Positions 17,815 to 50,557 of a stretch of 64,000 nt of DNA are shown here, piece by piece. Position 1 is the first letter of the stretch. The number at the start of each line of letters is the position of its first letter. This DNA comes from a virus (Duplodnaviria > Caudoviricetes). The position numbers and the translations under genes were made by a program. A model generated the notes under the pieces. It was not told the DNA's origin. It saw nothing but the letters and a program-made list of their open reading frames with translations, and did no database searches. The stretch lies in the IMG/VR virus record IMGVR_UViG_3300027804_002812, positions 192,001-256,000 of that record; one strand, written 5' to 3'.

Positions 17815-20073
17815 TTACTTCTTCAAATGATTGAACCTGAAGACAATATTCTCCTCTTCAGGTTTATCTGAGAATTTCGGTCCCAAATAATTTTGAAAAT
17901 TGTTTCTCAACTTTGTCTCGATTTGTTTTTCAACCTTTTCAGGAGTTACGTTTGGTATTTCACCTTTCAAATAATTTTCAGGTGTTGGAACTTGTTTTCC
18001 GTCTACCACTTTCAAAACGTCTTGAATGTCCACGTTCACGACGTTTTTGTCGTCAATATCTTCAACGGAAGAAATTTTGAATTTGATGCTAATTTTTGGT
18101 TCCATACCATAGGACGAAGATTTTGCGGTCGAAACTTTTTGGGAAATCAATGAAGGAGCAAGTTCTCTGAATGCCTTTCGTTTAAGTTCCATCACTTTCT
18201 CGTGAGTAGCCCCTCTCTCAATCATTTCCATTTCTTGACGAGACAATAGATAAACTTGAGAGTCCAAAGTATCATTCCATCTATATGGTTGAGAAGCATA
18301 CATTTGTTTTCCTGTGGACGATGAATATCTATCTGAGGTTTCATACCACTTTCCATCTTTGAAGATATAAACTGGATACCATCCATAAGACTCGACAATA
18401 TATATCTTTCCGTCCATTGTTGTTCTCCAATATCCCCTCAAGTTTGAACCTTCAAATGGAAGTTGAGCTTTGGTATAAACTTTGGCGTTATAATTCGGAG
18501 TACGTTTACCTTTCATCTTTCTTGGATCGATAAAGTTATCCTTTGTCAATGATGAATAATCACCATCTTCTCGATAATTCAAAAGATATAATTCCAAAAT
18601 ATATGAAGCATAATCTGCGTCAATCCCAAAATAAGGTAAATAATCCTTGATTGCGGTTTGTAAGTCTCTTTTGTTGTTATAATTACTTTTTTGGGTATTA
18701 AGAATTTTGAATAGTTTGACAATCACCTTATTTGGTTCAATATCGACCGCCTCATTCATCATGTTATCATCAACGCAAGCGGTTAGATAATATTCCATCA
18801 AATCATCACCATACCAACTCTGACACAGTGCAAAAATTCTGTCAATAAATTCTTCATAACTATTCTCAGTAAAATAATCTTCGTTAACCGCAAAAAAATG
18901 TTCAATCGCCATCGCAATAATGTTACCGGAATATTCGTATTCATCATCATAGTCTCCACAAAGATCCGGAAATTCCTCCTGTGTCTCAAGAATATATTTC
19001 ATGAAGGATTCCTTAGTAACCCTCCGTTTCAATCTATCCATTAAGGATGACTCAGATAATAATTCGTGCTGTGATTCAATTACTCTTTCAAGTTGTGATT
19101 CAGTAATAATATATTCTTTTTTTAATTTTTGTTCTGTTAAATTAGATGGGTCATTCCATCCTAACTTTGGATAATTCGAACTTAAATAAAGTTGATTCGG
19201 ACTTTCCAATCCAGCAAGTAATTCTTTTTCAATGTTATTAAAATCGGTATAAGCGATTCTTATTAATTTAATATTATTTTGACTTGTGTATTGATTTTTG
19301 ATTGTATCATAATTTACTCTTTCTTTGAATCTCGTTTCTCCTCCATGTTTCGCATTTGGCTTGAAATGTGGCTCTCCATCGTATTCAACTAAAATTTCTC
19401 TGTTTTCCTTATCCTTCAAATAAAAATCAAATTTCAATCGGGTACATCTATTCGATTCTTTTCCACTTTTACAATCTGAGAATTTTTTTTCTTTTTCGAA
19501 ATCTTTATAACCCTTTTCTATTAAAATATCGTTTAATTTTTTCGCGCCAATAGACCCTTCAGCTTTTCTACATATGGGGCATCCAGTTTTGCCTTGGCGA
19601 AGATTATCTATATTGACCCCATCTTTAGCAAAAACTCCATGGGTATTACCATTTTCGTCTTTTTTTGTACAAAATACATCTTTAACATATCTTCTTATAG
19701 TGTTTCCTCTTGTTTCACGATAAAATGTACTTTGGTCAAAGTTATAACCCCTATCTTTTGGAAAATTTTTTACGTACTCATCGAAGTCCACTCTTTTAGG
19801 TCCCATGCTTAGACGACGACATTCCCTACAACCACCCTCTCCTCTATATAAATAAGAGACTTTCAAATTATTACTGACACCATGTGGATTTCCATTTTCA
19901 TCTTTGATAGGACAATATAAGTTATTCAAATATCTCTGTCCTTTCATATTCGGGCTTAATTCCCCTTTATCAAAGTAATATTCAACATTAGAAAAATCCC
20001 ATTGAGGATATAACGCTTGGAGTTCGGCGGTTACTTGTTCATCGGGTTTCTTGGCTTCAAAAATTAATTTCAT
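17815..20073 (-). CDS. Fusion: Zn-finger repeats + Vsr/PD-(D/E)xK-like endonuclease + leader-tagged hypothetical domains
   Basis: Two C..DENGN.HGV...GC..C repeats; LKFDFYL..ILVEYDGEPHF..KLIRIAY; internal EYIITESQLERVIE; start MKLIFE follows TATTTAT. Confidence 0.75.
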   Translation of the reverse strand: MKLIFEAKKPDEQVTAELQALYPQWDFSNVEYYFDKGELSPNMKGQRYLNNLYCPIKDENGNPHGVSNNLKVSYLYRGEGGCRECRRLSMGPKRVDFDEYVKNFPKDRGYNFDQSTFYRETRGNTIRRYVKDVFCTKKDENGNTHGVFAKDGVNIDNLRQGKTGCPICRKAEGSIGAKKLNDILIEKGYKDFEKEKKFSDCKSGKESNRCTRLKFDFYLKDKENREILVEYDGEPHFKPNAKHGGETRFKERVNYDTIKNQYTSQNNIKLIRIAYTDFNNIEKELLAGLESPNQLYLSSNYPKLGWNDPSNLTEQKLKKEYIITESQLERVIESQHELLSESSLMDRLKRRVTKESFMKYILETQEEFPDLCGDYDDEYEYSGNIIAMAIEHFFAVNEDYFTENSYEEFIDRIFALCQSWYGDDLMEYYLTACVDDNMMNEAVDIEPNKVIVKLFKILNTQKSNYNNKRDLQTAIKDYLPYFGIDADYASYILELYLLNYREDGDYSSLTKDNFIDPRKMKGKRTPNYNAKVYTKAQLPFEGSNLRGYWRTTMDGKIYIVESYGWYPVYIFKDGKWYETSDRYSSSTGKQMYASQPYRWNDTLDSQVYLLSRQEMEMIERGATHEKVMELKRKAFRELAPSLISQKVSTAKSSSYGMEPKISIKFKISSVEDIDDKNVVNVDIQDVLKVVDGKQVPTPENYLKGEIPNVTPEKVEKQIETKLRNNFQNYLGPKFSDKPEEENIVFRFNHLKK

Positions 20074-20126
20074 ATTCATAAATACCCCAAAAAAACAAAA
20101 TCCCTTCAAAATTGTGGGATTATATA

Positions 20127-26269: not shown

Positions 26270-26971
26270 TTAATTGAAAAATTTATTTAACAAGTATCTA
26301 CCAAAATGTAAATTCATTTTGTAACTCCAATGAAAATCCCCTTCTAATCCATAACAACCATCTGTGGATAAAAAAACATCTTGATGAGTTTCCCAAAATC
26401 CAATGTTATCCTCCAAGGTATTTCTATCTTCTATTTTTTGAGATTTGATGTCCATGTTATCCCAAGAAAATACGTAAGTTCTACATTTTGTCAATTCGAT
26501 CAAGGATTCAATAACTTCGATTGTTGTTTTTTGATTTGAGATTGACGTATTAATAATTTCTTGGTGAGATAGTTCGTTTTCAAAGTATTTCCAAGAGTAT
26601 TCCTGACCCCAAAATTCTAAAGATGTGTAATCATTATTGTATGATGGAGTCCCCACAAATCGAGTATAAAGTATATCCTCGTCAATTTTTGATTGAGTGT
26701 AGTGGTTTTCCAAAAGTGGTAATCTAGTTCGTCTGAAGTATGGGAGACAAATGATTAAAAAATCATCTTCCTTCAAATTTTTAATAACTCGAATCCAATT
26801 TTCGATTATTGTTTGCACGTCTCGGCTAGGGAAAGAATCAACTATTACCCGATAATCAACAAGTTTATCTTTTAATACATCGGGCCAAAAATTCTTGGAT
26901 TCATTTGGTTGGGGTTCAACCCAATCCATTCTTCCGCAAAAACTATCACCAATTATTATTATTTTATTCAT
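26270..26971 (-). CDS. SGNH-like paralog 5
   Basis: IGDSF, DFHWS. Confidence 0.7.
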   Translation of the reverse strand: MNKIIIIGDSFCGRMDWVEPQPNESKNFWPDVLKDKLVDYRVIVDSFPSRDVQTIIENWIRVIKNLKEDDFLIICLPYFRRTRLPLLENHYTQSKIDEDILYTRFVGTPSYNNDYTSLEFWGQEYSWKYFENELSHQEIINTSISNQKTTIEVIESLIELTKCRTYVFSWDNMDIKSQKIEDRNTLEDNIGFWETHQDVFLSTDGCYGLEGDFHWSYKMNLHFGRYLLNKFFN

Positions 26972-46957: not shown

Positions 46958-47485
46958 TCACTTTACCAAATGAGGATATTTCTCCATCATTTTATTCACC
47001 TTTGTAATTGTATTAATACAAACCCCCAACTCTTCAGATATCCTATTATGCCTCCATCCCAACTTTTTTAATTCAACAATTTTCTTAATCTTTACTTTTT
47101 CAAAAAATAATTCAGGACTTTCACTTGTACCAACTTTTCTACCTGTATAAATTCCAAGTTCCTTTGCCCTTTTTATTCCCTTCATTCTCATCTCCTTAGA
47201 GTCTCTATTTATCACCAATTCCACAATCCCCAATAGATACTGCTGAATATAAAACGGTATAAACTTACACCTATATCCCTTCGAAATATTTTCCTTTAAT
47301 GGAAGAAATTGAATATTTCTCAAATCTGCAATATACTCAGGGGGTACGTTCAATCTATATCCAAATGAAACAGGAAACTTGTGGTCTATCGTCATTCCCT
47401 CAGGAACAATAATTCCTTTATAATTCAAATTTTGATTAGTATACCAATCAACCTTTCTTCTATAACTATTCATTGAAATTTCCAT
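46958..47485 (-). CDS. HNH-like nuclease fused to resolvase-type HTH
   Basis: TIDHKFPVS.G..NIQFLPLKENISKG; GIKRAKELGIYTGRK..RISEELGVCINTITKV. Confidence 0.65.
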   Translation of the reverse strand: MEISMNSYRRKVDWYTNQNLNYKGIIVPEGMTIDHKFPVSFGYRLNVPPEYIADLRNIQFLPLKENISKGYRCKFIPFYIQQYLLGIVELVINRDSKEMRMKGIKRAKELGIYTGRKVGTSESPELFFEKVKIKKIVELKKLGWRHNRISEELGVCINTITKVNKMMEKYPHLVK

Positions 47486-47617
47486 AACTAAAAAATAAAC
47501 AATACCACAAATTTTGTAAAATTTTTCCAAAAATTTTTTTTAACGTTGAAGGAGTATTTCCAAATAGGGGGTCAATGTTTAGAAAATAAAAAACCCCTCT
47601 GTTGGGAGGGGTTAATA

Positions 47618-47905
47618 TTAGTTCAACTTCTTTATGTATTGACCAACACCTGTACTCATGAATCCATTTTTCCTCAACTTACTTTTAATCCTAAGACCTG
47701 TATCCTTATCAAACCCATTCCATCCAAAATAACTTGGACTTTCCACATCCACCACAACATAACCCCCAATATATTTTACAGTCACACATTCAGAGTCCAT
47801 ATACTGTTTCAAATCATCAAGAATATCAATATCTCGGACTTCTTTAATCACCCCTCGTATAATCTTAATCAATTCAGATTCCGTAAGTCTTACAATTTTT
47901 TTCAT
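47618..47905 (-). CDS. Leader-tagged hypothetical protein
   Basis: MKKIVRLTESELIKIIRGVIKE; TATTTAT upstream. Confidence 0.78.
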   Translation of the reverse strand: MKKIVRLTESELIKIIRGVIKEVRDIDILDDLKQYMDSECVTVKYIGGYVVVDVESPSYFGWNGFDKDTGLRIKSKLRKNGFMSTGVGQYIKKLN

Positions 47906-47995
47906 ATTAATAAATACCCAAAAAAGGTCATTTTTTTCCCAAAAATTATTTTGCATAACATAGGGGATTATCCCCCCAAAACTGACATTCTGACA

Positions 47996-48063
47996 GGAGG
48001 GAAGGGGGGATACGGGGGGTAGGGGCCCCATATGGGGGGGTGGACCCCATGCCAGAGGGGAGG
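47996..48063 (+). other. G-rich tract with G-quadruplex pattern and palindromes
   Basis: GGG-aa-GGGGGG-atac-GGGGGG-ta-GGGG..GGGGGGG; CCCCATATGGGG. Confidence 0.75.
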
Positions 48064-48100
48064 TATTAGATATATTTATTTATCCCCCACCCCCTATGAG

Positions 48101-48163
48101 TTATCCACAACTTATCAATGTGGATAACTTGTGGAGGTAAACAGAATAATATATTGTGGATAA
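48101..48163. promoter_or_regulatory. DnaA-box cluster 1
   Basis: TTATCCACA at 48101(+), 48119(-), 48155(-). Confidence 0.8.
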
Positions 48164-48352
48164 GTGGTATGACAGGCAGTCAGGAATAAAAACCACGTAG
48201 GGGTAACCAAAGAATGTTCTGTATACACAGTACAATTATATCTTGGAATCGTACGCACTACTTAACATAATCTAGATTATATAACATACTTCTATAACTC
48301 CCCCAACCTTTTATTGTATTATGTGGGGAATGTTTAGACACACCTTAAAAGT

Positions 48353-48787
48353 TTAGATAGTCATGAAAGGTTGTTGACCTTCCTTACGATTGATGTGCCA
48401 TGTCCCCACTTCAAGATTACGTCCCCTAATCTTAAACTCATCAGGAATGGCGGGGTTCTCAGTAACATCTTTGATTACAGACCTTATCCCATCACGGACT
48501 GACTTGTACTGTTCATACTCCATATCGTTAATAAGGTTGGGGTAAGACCAATCCAAATACTTCCCCTCATCAATCAACTCCTGAATCCATTCCTTCGTCT
48601 CAAAACCATAAGCCTCAGAAAACTCAGTGGGGTCGAACTCAAAGTTCAAAAAAATTGTTGTATAGAGATCCAAGTCCTCCTGTCTGACAAACACATCCTT
48701 AATCCATGGGTACTTCTTTTTTAATGCTCTCTTAATCAACTTGAAAACATATACGTTATAAATTTGTTCAGGTGTAATCTTCCCCAT
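48353..48787 (-). CDS. Hypothetical protein
   Basis: 144 aa; TATTTAT upstream. Confidence 0.78.
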   Translation of the reverse strand: MGKITPEQIYNVYVFKLIKRALKKKYPWIKDVFVRQEDLDLYTTIFLNFEFDPTEFSEAYGFETKEWIQELIDEGKYLDWSYPNLINDMEYEQYKSVRDGIRSVIKDVTENPAIPDEFKIRGRNLEVGTWHINRKEGQQPFMTI

Positions 48788-48801
48788 GGTAATACTGTTT
48801 A

Positions 48802-49038
48802 TTATAAATACTCAGTCTTTATCATCTTTTGACATACCTCCACAATATCCTTGGGGAATATCTCATAGTCAGACACTTCGTACAACTTCTCAATCTTGGC
48901 ATCAACACAAACCCAAGCATCCATACTTAATGGTTTATTCGTAAACCCCCTCTTCGCTTTCTCAAAATACAGAGAACCAACCTCTTCCTCTTTGAAGGAG
49001 ATAATAAACCGTATTCTCCCCTCCTCTATCTTGTCCAT
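48802..49038 (-). CDS. Hypothetical protein
   Basis: Start MDKIEE (49038) directly after TATTTAT; the longer track start runs into DnaA boxes. Confidence 0.7.
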   Translation of the reverse strand: MDKIEEGRIRFIISFKEEEVGSLYFEKAKRGFTNKPLSMDAWVCVDAKIEKLYEVSDYEIFPKDIVEVCQKMIKTEYL

Positions 49039-49058
49039 CTTATAAATAAAATCTGTCA

Positions 49059-49162
49059 TGTGGATAAGTATACATTCGGAACATATAAAAATAAAGTTAT
49101 CCACACACTGACATTATGTCTGGCGGGGTCGTCATGTGGAAAACTTTTTCCATTGTGGATAA
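49059..49162. promoter_or_regulatory. DnaA-box cluster 2
   Basis: TTATCCACA at 49059(-), 49097(+), 49154(-); TTTTCCACA at 49135(-); one-mismatch boxes at 49766 and 49800. Confidence 0.8.
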
Positions 49163-49858
49163 CTATTATGACCAAAAAACTTGATTTTGTCAAAATGTCA
49201 GGGGAGCGTTACATGGGGGATAATCCCTTTGGGGATATTCGGTTCCCCCACTCTCTACCACATTCCCCCACCATGAGTAGTGAATTTATGGCTGGTTATA
49301 GTGTAATGACCACTTTTTCCCCCCTGACGATAGCAGGAAGACCATTTTTTTACTATGTCTGTTTTCTAGCAAAAAAAGGATTAGTAAGTGAGACCCCGCG
49401 TGTAACGAACGTAGTGAGTGTTTTAATCCCCCTTCAACGAATCACCATGGTTATATAGACCATATGAGATGACCATTACATTCCCCTTCAAGGGACATAT
49501 CGTGGATGGTGGTAAGAAGTGGGAGTAAGTATATGACATGGTATTATGAACCGAAGGTATTATCTTATATGTCATCTCACTATAGAACTGTATGTGAAAT
49601 AATATATGTTAATTCGGAAATTCCCCGAATGGGGATGGTTTATTTAACATCTCACCTTCACACTATACACCATCTCGTTTGATGTCCCCTCATTTAGCGG
49701 GGATTAGTTTGGCGGGGATTATACAACAAGAGAGAGAATAAGGGACAATCCACGGAACAAAGTGTAGTGGATAATGTCTGTCCCGAAATGAACGAACTTG
49801 GTGGATAATCATCACAATTATTTAATATGGTGTGAGTTTCTTTATTCTATTTATTGCT

Positions 49859-50557
49859 ATGATAAAAGACTTACTAACAATCGTTATACCCTGTAAGAAT
49901 GAAATGGAGTTAATTGATTTGACTCTGAGTTTAATTAACAAACAAGAGGGCATATCAGGTACAAGAGTTATTATTGCTGATTCCTCTGATGATTCGACAA
50001 GGGACATTATATTATCAGGAGGACATGATAATTTGAACATTACTATTATTGATGGTGGTTATCCGAGCGTAGCAAGAAACAAGGGTTCTGAGTTATGTAC
50101 AACCCCCTATATATTATTCTTGGATGCTGATATATTCTTGATTGATAATACCACCATTAAGAAGTGTATGGATATTATACAGAAACAGTCATTGGAGTTA
50201 TTAACCTGTAAGTTTAGATGTGAAGGCAGGTATTCATTTGTCTTCCCCATCTTTGAATTCTTTAGAGATTTATCTGTTAGATATTCCCCATGTGCGATTG
50301 GTGGTTTTATGTTGTTTGAATATGATACCTTTATTAGAGTTGGAGGATTTGATGATGAAGATAAGTTTGCTGAGGATTTTCATCTTAGTAGTAAAATCTC
50401 CCCTAAGTTATTTAAGGTGGTGAATAAGAAGATATATACTACGGATAGAAGATTTAAGAAGAAAGGATTATTTTATATGGTTAAAGTTGCCATTCTATCC
50501 ATAATGAATAAGAACAACCCCGCGTTTTTTAAGTATGACCACAACTACTGGCTATAA
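49859..50557 (+). CDS. GT2 glycosyltransferase
   Basis: TIVIPCKNE, IADSSDD, ARNKG, LFLDADI, EDFHL. Confidence 0.9.
   Translation: MIKDLLTIVIPCKNEMELIDLTLSLINKQEGISGTRVIIADSSDDSTRDIILSGGHDNLNITIIDGGYPSVARNKGSELCTTPYILFLDADIFLIDNTTIKKCMDIIQKQSLELLTCKFRCEGRYSFVFPIFEFFRDLSVRYSPCAIGGFMLFEYDTFIRVGGFDDEDKFAEDFHLSSKISPKLFKVVNKKIYTTDRRFKKKGLFYMVKVAILSIMNKNNPAFFKYDHNYWL

Follow-up and report, generated by a model that had tools for sequence, protein, structure and literature searches.

Organisation of the box-bearing module

The DnaA-type boxes of this phage sit in a single-copy module of about 1.9 kb, formed by two inverted non-coding arms around two small conserved genes. Within 1,062 bp (48101–49162) of the window, by which we mean the whole 64-kb stretch of DNA analysed, six perfect copies of TTATCCACA and one TTTTCCACA were found, making seven sites that fit TTWTNCACA. 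Three perfect boxes lie in the left arm, one on the plus strand (48101–48109) and two on the minus strand (48119–48127 and 48155–48163), whereas at the opposite end of the module there are perfect boxes at 49059–49067 (minus), 49097–49105 (plus) and 49154–49162 (minus), with TTTTCCACA at 49135–49143 (minus). Neighbouring boxes are separated by 9, 27, 29, 29, and 10 nt. Along the 326-kb genome, perfect copies of TTATCCACA number 11 against about 4.2 expected, and six of these 11 fall in the 1,062 bp, where about 0.014 would be expected (Poisson P for at least six, about 1e-14, by arithmetic from the genome-wide count). The window holds eight perfect boxes, compared to a mean of 1.17 in dinucleotide shuffles, none of 100 reaching eight. 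The nine sites listed in the initial annotation were all recovered at their coordinates and strands, but its count of a single perfect box elsewhere in the window (22784) has to be corrected, as a second one was found at 26363 on the minus strand, giving a window total of eight rather than seven. One-mismatch boxes as a class showed no enrichment in the window (33 vs. 28 expected), and the two included in that list, TTATCCACT and TTATCCACC (starting at 49766 and 49800, within 49766–49808, minus strand), are present but doubtful, being conserved only in close relatives and missing from G001, a relative of 321 kb.

Both arms follow the same plan, with one to four DnaA-type boxes on the inner side and, on the outer side, a composite element that joins GGGATAATCCC to a double TGTCA/TGACA. 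The left non-coding arm (IGR1, 47907–48352) extends from the start of a minus-strand gene (47618–47906) to the end of gene A. Its outer element, composed of GGGGATTATCCCCCC, AAAA, and CTGACATTCTGACA (47963–47996, plus strand), reads CTGTCA-18-GATAAT on the minus strand, a promoter-like arrangement, and is an inverted copy of the right one (I13, 13/13; I14, 93%), conserved in relatives; the pair is unique within the phage genome. A conserved A/T tract (47918–47957) adjoins the −10-like GATAAT of this arm, and no such tract was found directly downstream of the promoter-like element of the right arm. Next to the left element there is a G-run tract (AAGGGGGGATACGGGGGG...GGGGCCCC...CCCCATGCCAGAGGGG) followed by a C-run patch (47996–48094, plus strand), whose 2-kb bin contains 17 G5 runs against no more than eight in every other bin, and the 18-mer AAGGGGGGATACGGGGGG was found in 26 IMG/VR contigs. 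The AT-rich palindrome ATAATCTAGATTAT, pointed out in the initial annotation at 48268, does exist and is part of the least stable 40-bp segment of the region according to the nearest-neighbour profile (48258–48297, 95 bp from the closest box), but this segment is kept only in the nearest relative, L129.

The two genes between the arms are both encoded on the minus strand. Gene A (48353–48787, 144 aa) has homologues between the arms in about 20 relatives, with around 30% identity, and the ATG of gene B (48802–49059, 85 aa), also conserved, shares its A with the box at 49059–49067, so that both overlap by one base. Pfam and PHROG searches with A, B, and their neighbours yielded no family. The AF2 models of A (pLDDT 89.5) and B (pLDDT 80) gave no convincing and no significant fold match, respectively, as Foldseek searches against PDB and BFVD together with VIA-align returned generic alpha/beta folds only (Z ≤ 5.1, E ≥ 0.09).

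Upstream of gene B, at a distance of 19–37 nt, there is a conserved 19-mer, GGAACATATAAAAATAAAG (49078–49096), with boxes on either side, the one at 49097–49105 abutting it. This 19-mer is invariant in nine lineages and has one copy in the genome of this phage. The right outer composite element, TTGATTTTGTCAAAATGTCAGGGGAGCG...GGGGGATAATCCC (49181–49227, plus strand), reads ATGTCA-18-GATAAT on the plus strand and is followed by a conserved non-coding tract of about 490 nt (49228–49720, 72% identity to G001), made of sequence blocks such as GACCACTTTTTCCCC, TAGCAAAAAAAGG, CTTCAACGA, and ATGGTGG, with tandem GCGGGGA repeats at its end. A terminator-like hairpin (49620–49636, plus strand) is kept between lineages with a wholly different stem sequence. 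No RNA genes were detected by Rfam (E up to 1) or tRNA scans, the 490-nt tract giving no Rfam match, and its candidacy as a structured ncRNA was rejected, with RNAalifold values of −11 and −4 kcal/mol, almost no covariation, and MFE z-scores of −0.76 and −2.0 for the plus and minus strands, respectively. We read it as sequence blocks conserved at the level of DNA, together with one or two hairpins of variable stem. As to the surroundings, the initial annotation had placed the boxes in the largest non-coding stretches of the window, at a divergent transcription switch; the non-coding stretches proper are 47907–48352 and 49060–49860, and the switch corresponds to the second of them, between gene B on the minus strand and a glycosyltransferase gene on the plus strand.

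Conservation in related phages and candidate host

The whole genome of the phage (326,291 bp, GC 33.7%) is that of a T4-like jumbo phage of freshwater Bacteroidota, encoding T4-type virion genes (large terminase, portal, and capsid), a family B polymerase, and a DnaB-like helicase. A search of the genome found neither DnaA nor DnaA domain IV, in agreement with the host protein being the one invoked by the initial annotation, and no recognisable initiator gene was detected despite the phage having its own helicase and polymerase. A TonB-type receptor gene of the phage shows 60% identity to Aquirufa genes, and the host is likely an Aquirufa-like member of the Cytophagales (Bacteroidota). The oriC-like locus of Aquirufa contains nine perfect copies of TTATCCACA, the same 9-mer as the phage boxes, and this type of host also carries a small cluster of three boxes outside oriC. 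The capture of the phage module from the host oriC was considered and rejected, as the similarity to the Aquirufa oriC is confined to the boxes themselves. When the region 47500–50500 was compared by blastn with GenBank phages, no match was found.

Relatives were identified in IMG/VR through the portal protein and exact non-coding motifs, whereas a peptide-pattern search with gene A against the same database found nothing. At least 25 related contigs preserve the layout of the module, and the alignment of the left arm took in 18 distinct relatives. Box-like sites were present in 30 of 31 distinct arms, conservation in relatives being one of the checks proposed in the initial annotation. Consensus boxes reached 9.7 per kb in the arms against 0.14 per kb in the parts of these loci lying beyond 2.5 kb, and TTATNAACA variants 4.7 against 0.19 per kb, so that box density in the arms was roughly 25- to 70-fold that of the same contigs beyond 2.5 kb. 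The arms are also among the few stretches of the 14-kb neighbourhood that can be aligned with G001 at the DNA level; the segment 47905–48109 shows 76% identity to this relative, while its flanking genes are unalignable as DNA. These comparisons clearly point to purifying selection on the module.

The form of the boxes is more variable: all along the family they are maintained, but lineages differ in how many there are, which way they point, and how far apart they lie. The box beside the conserved 19-mer is on the plus strand in this phage and on the minus strand in the G001 lineage. The position of TTTTCCACA (49135–49143) is kept in most relatives, and the site homologous to the box at 49154–49162 is TTATCAACA, TTATTAACA, or TTATGAACA in other lineages. 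Whole lineages carry the candidate variants TTATTAACA or TTATCAACA at homologous positions in both arms, and some are reduced to one or two weak variant boxes per arm. In L104 and L105, both close relatives, the box over the gene B start codon is TTATCAACA.

Origin-like and promoter-like features

A chromosome-style origin opened by DnaA is disfavoured by the sequence of the module, because none of the boxes is followed by DnaA-trios or by an unwinding element that is conserved, and because box orientation and position are variable. Applying the rule of at least three NAN trios located 0–16 nt 3' of a box (PMC8287927), the longest run was two at every phage box, compared to an average of 2.44 at random positions, whereas the same script detected runs of 8 and 6 in the host oriC, where tandem boxes are followed by eight trios and an AT-rich tract. 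No conserved AT-rich unwinding element was found beside the phage boxes. In addition, their orientation and position at any putative unwinding site change between lineages, whereas in Bacillus subtilis reversing boxes 6/7 inactivates incC (PMC6669920). Cumulative GC skew, proposed in the initial annotation as a check, could be computed over the genome, but it tracks gene orientation, with its global extremes at the record ends, and thus says nothing about the origin.

With respect to transcription, a −10-like GATAAT with TGTCA 18 nt upstream is conserved in both arms. Neither sigma-70-type nor Bacteroidota-type (TAnnTTTG) motifs are enriched upstream of the genes of this phage, where the dominant motif is TATTTAT; the outward "promoters" are therefore consensus matches only. 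On the minus strand, TTGACA (49193–49188) and CATAAT (49170–49165, just outside the right element) are separated by 17 nt, forming a sigma-70-like promoter (TTGACA-17-CATAAT, 11/12) over the box at 49154, which was rejected as its −10 is not conserved and the class is not enriched. Metatranscriptome contigs overlap 47930–48340 and 49034–49402. They belong to relatives, have low depth, and lack strand information, and we take them as a weak hint, as this cover of the arms could be DNA carry-over or alignment bias; the uncovered parts of the arms carry no meaning.

Possible roles of host DnaA at the module

From the boxes and their conservation, host DnaA very probably docks at this control region of the phage. 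As no DnaA is encoded by the phage, the protein binding both arms would be that of the host. The proposal of the initial annotation was well supported regarding the sites for host DnaA, which match the host oriC 9-mer and are conserved in a phage lacking DnaA, whereas its two suggested functions, initiation or datA-like titration, are conjectural. Our tentative reading, possible though short of probable, is that host DnaA plays an architectural or regulatory role at a hub for transcription and, possibly, for a T4-type origin. It would bind both arms without opening the DNA in the manner of a chromosome origin. At gene B it would cover the start codon and the conserved 19-mer close to the promoter, and it would lie 60–200 bp upstream of both promoter-like elements that face outward. 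We infer from this placement a step from binding to transcriptional control, in which DnaA occupancy, reflecting the replication state of the host, would set the timing of hub transcription. More speculatively, and by analogy with the R-loop origins of T4, this gating may also decide when the initial rounds of phage replication take place. The drift in box orientation, number, and spacing, with presence kept, agrees more readily with sites that work by occupancy than with an ordered filament for unwinding.

This regulatory reading finds partial parallels in known systems. In the oriF and oriG origins of T4, a promoter and a downstream A+T-rich element serve for R-loop priming (PMC3016281), and in our phage, also T4-like, conserved non-coding DNA lies beyond the promoter-like elements, with a conserved A/T tract just past the −10-like hexamer in the left arm. 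However, the T4 origins span about 100 bp and depend on MotA-dependent middle promoters without DnaA, whereas the promoters here are consensus matches. The systems of DnaA regulation or titration (autoregulation of the dnaA promoter, stimulation of lambda pR, the B. subtilis DnaA-box clusters, and E. coli datA; see also PMC5835720) share with the phage module boxes at a gene start, boxes flanking a conserved promoter-proximal element, and a cluster away from the origin; however, they are cellular or belong to temperate phages, in contrast to the inverted bipartite module of a lytic jumbo phage.

Among the other explanations, a true host-DnaA-dependent lytic origin appears unlikely. Here DnaA would open nearby DNA, either the A/T tract at 47918–47957 or the low-stability segment at 48258–48297, for loading of the phage DnaB-like helicase and bidirectional replication. 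One site per genome with a large, conserved, and symmetric non-coding architecture is what would be expected of a replication origin, and DnaA boxes serve in origin opening in P1 oriR and many plasmids; the lack of a recognisable initiator beside a phage helicase and polymerase also speaks for it, as does a cluster of three to four boxes with the same high-affinity 9-mer as the likely host oriC. Against this, the basal unwinding system of bacterial oriC (PMC8287927, PMC6669920) has trios and an unwinding element that are absent from the phage module, where no more than two trios follow any box, the least stable segment is not conserved, and the orientation of the boxes is not fixed. T4-type phages, moreover, have no known need for DnaA (PMC3016281), and the skew is uninformative. 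If the amplified copies of the genome, with about seven boxes each, titrated DnaA and stopped host re-initiation, the module would be a sink of the datA or box-cluster type, which we consider improbable. The function of datA requires IHF and promotes DnaA-ATP hydrolysis. The phage cluster, made of high-affinity sites outside any demonstrated origin as in titration-type clusters, free in orientation and spacing and conserved in presence rather than geometry, would suit such a sink, and so would the three-box cluster of the host, but titration leaves unexplained the strict placement in an inverted two-gene module, the conserved neighbouring elements, and the lineages with so few and weak boxes, and the gain for a lytic phage is not evident.

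The closest described case is the injection stop signal (iss) of T5 (bioRxiv 10.1101/866236), organised as IRC-spacer-IRD and IRD'-spacer-IRC' with about eight DnaA boxes. Both phages are virulent, both have a large untranslated region better conserved than the surrounding genes, with two inverted units 1.8–4.3 kb (roughly 1–4 kb) apart and DnaA boxes in each, and both use the repertoire TTATCCACA, TTATCAACA, and TTATTAACA. This strikingly parallel architecture, variant boxes included, would fit an entry or anchoring site where membrane-associated DnaA catches the inverted arms and holds or positions the incoming genome. Such a role has a low probability for our phage: the T5 model is itself a hypothesis, there is no sequence similarity between both regions, and the T5 boxes form pairs 3 bp apart in the terminal repeat that enters first, whereas ours are single boxes with gaps of 9–29 nt in a phage whose T4-type large terminase, portal, and capsid normally mean headful packaging with no fixed first-entering end. 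The module further differs in the two conserved genes between its arms and in the attached G-run tracts and 490-nt block-conserved tract. Finally, it is very doubtful that the sites are mere look-alikes bound by a phage-encoded protein. The lineage-wide presence of TTATTAACA or TTATCAACA in both arms looks as if the specificity of a binder had shifted, and two genes of uncharacterised function are at hand within the module, but the 9-mer of the host oriC is present in six exact copies, next to the classical variants TTTTCCACA and TTATTCACA, and DnaA domain IV is absent from the phage. That A or B should be the binder is unlikely, as box type differs even between close relatives whose A and B proteins are nearly the same.

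Among phages, DnaA boxes have been described chiefly for replicons of the temperate or plasmid-like type, P1 oriR and lambda among them, the T5 iss having stood as an unexplained curiosity. The present family, which is not related to T5 and is abundant in freshwater, adds a second one of virulent phages in which a bipartite inverted module with DnaA boxes is maintained, here lacking the chromosomal unwinding elements. This case points to a recurrent use of the host initiator by lytic phages. The module is also a concrete and testable object: its arms are delimited, its boxes vary naturally between lineages, the candidate host genus has strains in culture, and two conserved genes accompany it. 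Should phage transcription or replication be gated by DnaA, phage development and the cell cycle of the host would be coupled.

A bolder and rather unlikely proposal is that of a hybrid origin, in which host DnaA on the mirror-image arms would license outward transcripts that prime bidirectional replication of the T4 style, DnaA-box arrays being a general "host-state sensor" of unrelated lytic phages. Before committing to replication, a lytic jumbo phage would in that case sense the initiation state of its host, and the sensor would have been reused by T5-like phages, by this family, and by the unrelated IMG/VR contigs, at least 119 of them, in which we found triple perfect boxes.

Architecture and box content of the module

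The DnaA-type 9-mers (boxes) lie in a module of about 1.9 kb in which two mutually inverted non-coding arms, IGR1 on the left (47907-48352) and IGR2 on the right (49060-49860), flank two small genes on the minus strand: gene A, of 144 aa, at 48353-48787, and gene B, of 85 aa, at 48802-49059. Each arm has one outer composite element, GGGGATTATCCCCCC-AAAA-CTGACATTCTGACA in the left (47963-47996) and TGTCAAAATGTCAG-N13-GGGGGATAATCCC in the right (49188-49227), a pair unique in the genome, as well as inner boxes, three in the left arm and four in the right. The left arm includes a tract with G5 runs far denser than anywhere else in the genome, and the right one runs on into about 490 nt of non-coding DNA that is conserved in blocks. 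Box 49059-49067 overlaps the ATG of gene B by one base. The 19-mer at 49078-49096, which lies 19-37 nt upstream of gene B and does not vary between lineages, is directly adjoined by box 49097. Searches by sequence or fold for relatives of A and B (confident models, with pLDDT of 89.5 and 80, respectively) gave none that was informative.

The window contains eight perfect copies of TTATCCACA against a shuffle mean of 1.17 (0 of 100 shuffles reached eight), and the whole 326,291-bp record (GC 33.7%), of which the window spans bases 192001-256000, contains 11 against about 4.2 expected, six of them within 1,062 bp (48101-49162). All the sites named in the initial annotation, which had proposed a host-DnaA-dependent origin or a DnaA sink at 48101-49808, were recovered at their positions; the cluster was confirmed, but one isolated perfect box (26363) had been overlooked. 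One-mismatch boxes are not enriched as a class (33 in the window versus 28 expected), TTTTCCACA at 49135 being meaningful because it is kept by relatives; the two one-mismatch sites reported at 49766 and 49800 are present, but their conservation stops at close relatives.

Conservation and candidate host

A portal-protein search of IMG/VR retrieved hundreds of related contigs at 83-100% identity. DNA alignment of the 14-kb neighbourhood to G001, a complete relative of 321 kb, succeeds in short patches only, the arms ranking among the best of them (72-76% identity), and G001 has its boxes at the homologous places. Exact searches with two conserved arm 18-19-mers yielded about 45 contigs, with genes A and B between the arms throughout. 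Conservation of the boxes, left as a check in the initial annotation, was borne out: box-like sites occurred in 30 of 31 distinct 150-bp arm zones, and 20 zones had two or more. Consensus boxes reached 9.7 per kb in these zones versus 0.14 per kb more than 2.5 kb away in the same loci, and TTATNAACA variants 4.7 versus 0.19 per kb. In some lineages TTATCAACA, TTATTAACA or TTATGAACA replaces TTATCCACA at exactly the same positions; box number, spacing and even orientation vary, and presence is kept. The module is real, conserved and under selection. In G001, a 152-aa ORF with an HTH-like end (L096:7734-8192) separates the conserved tract from the GATTATACAACAAG block; the right arm can accommodate such a mobile-looking insertion.

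Conservation of the 490-nt tract is at the level of sequence blocks, not of RNA folding: RNAalifold energies were -11 and -4 kcal/mol and covariation was nearly absent, MFE z-scores were -0.76 and -2.0, and a search of the tract in Rfam produced no match. Two short right-arm hairpins (49395-49420 and 49620-49636) are fixed in position, with stems wholly different between lineages (GTTCCC-TTT-AGGGAAC vs GTCCCC-TTT-AGGGGAC; TCCCCGAATGGGGA vs ATCGTGGGTATCCACGAT). In the studied phage the first forms a purine-rich mini-hairpin; the second looks like a terminator.

The genome is that of a T4-like jumbo phage (gp20 portal, gp23 capsid protein, T4-type large terminase, tail sheath), encoding a family B polymerase, a ribonucleotide reductase and a DnaB-family helicase; a search for a phage-encoded DnaA, or DnaA domain IV, found neither in the genome. 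DNA runs containing the stretch are labelled freshwater metagenomes. Bacteroidota-type genes include SprB repeats and a TonB-dependent receptor with a CarboxypepD_reg domain, 60% identical over its full length to genes of Aquirufa (Cytophagales). The oriC of Aquirufa antheringensis holds nine perfect TTATCCACA in about 410 bp, adjoining a textbook unwinding module; the 9-mer of the phage boxes is therefore that of the likely host's oriC. Outside oriC, this candidate host has three tandem perfect boxes with start-to-start distances of 11 and 22 nt (L162:1955-2005; G006:C3:607462-607503), a cluster about as large as one arm of the phage module and possibly a host regulatory or titration site.

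Possible roles of DnaA

Origin features were sought with the rule of Pelliciari et al. (PMC8287927), under which three or more NAN trios must come within 0-16 nt after a box. At the host oriC, tandem boxes lead directly into eight trios plus an AT-rich tract, and a second box has six trios, whereas no phage box had more than two, below the random mean of 2.44. The AT-rich palindrome reported earlier does fall in the least stable 40-bp window (48258-48297), but this is conserved in the nearest relative only. Unwinding boxes of B. subtilis are inactivated by reversing their orientation (PMC6669920); in contrast, phage box orientation is not conserved. The defining features of an oriC-type unwinding origin are therefore missing from the module, which may yet be an origin of another type. 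GC skew, proposed as a further check, tracks gene orientation and carries no origin signal.

As for transcription, the predominant motif in the 40 nt ahead of start codons, genome-wide, is TATTTAT (extended form ATATTTATA). Within 120 nt of 314 gene starts it was counted 82 times, versus 12.9 expected, and it is probably the main promoter of the phage family; minus-strand examples lie at 47891-47897 and 48809-48815, upstream of the 47906 gene and gene A. Sigma-70-type and Bacteroidota TAnnTTTG motifs were not enriched upstream of phage genes, and the strongest sigma-70-like match, overlying box 49154, was discarded as a promoter, not being conserved in relatives. Both arms retain an outward-facing, -10-like GATAAT behind a G-run, a candidate promoter element. 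Both are also overlapped by low-depth metatranscriptome contigs from relatives, a weak hint only.

That host DnaA binds the boxes is very probable and well supported. Box type differs between close relatives whose A and B proteins are near-identical, which argues against either as the binder, and recognition by a phage-encoded protein instead of DnaA appears the least probable reading. Our tentative preference is for an architectural or regulatory role of DnaA at a transcription hub, where it would gate genes B and A plus the outward units; it might also gate a T4-type transcription-primed origin, since T4 origins consist of a promoter and a downstream A+T-rich element (PMC3016281). The origin-or-sink proposal is supported only in part, by the very probable host-DnaA sites, but the absence of oriC-type unwinding features makes a true DnaA-opened origin unlikely, and a DnaA sink is more doubtful still.

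Equally doubtful is an entry or anchoring site like the T5 iss region, the nearest described object: a conserved untranslated region with two inverted units kilobases apart, DnaA boxes in each, and a function that is hypothesised only (bioRxiv 10.1101/866236). It includes the variant boxes TTATCAACA and TTATTAACA, as some lineages of the module do, and differs from the module in box pairing, genomic location, packaging type and enclosed genes.

Other DnaA-box regions and neighbouring elements

DnaA-box "oriC" predictions for other phages are software output only. Three perfect TTATCCACA in +,-,- arrangement occur in at least 119 IMG/VR viral contigs (GC 34-63%). Many of these are short, and box numbers reach 23 (L210); part of the set may be wrongly classified sequence from bacterial oriC regions or plasmids, and none of the 79 in which the module was sought (L163-L241) carries it. 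DnaA-box clusters thus extend beyond the module-bearing phage family, and the module is a variant, not described before, of little-understood phage DnaA-box regions.

Elsewhere, host-like auxiliary genes (L009:17112-19598, L005:8708-10246, L002:13125-15260) encode a TonB-dependent receptor-like outer-membrane protein, a 512-aa fusion protein containing an Fe/Mn superoxide dismutase, and an SprB-repeat protein. Mobile-element-type genes (window 17815-20109 and 46958-47530; L015:7765-10020) encode a 764-aa protein matching HNH or homing endonucleases, a 190-aa protein beside the module, which weakly matches a PHROG of unknown function and, in its C-terminal part, DNA-invertase and HTH DNA-binding families, and a Hint/intein-domain protein of 751 aa. 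Finally, two palindromic TGACA-N3-TGTCA sites 43 bp apart (L009:10102-10157, genome 154102-154157), with a half-site akin to the module's direct TGACA repeats, look like an operator pair ahead of a ClpB/Hsp104-like AAA+ ATPase gene (L009:10213-12225).
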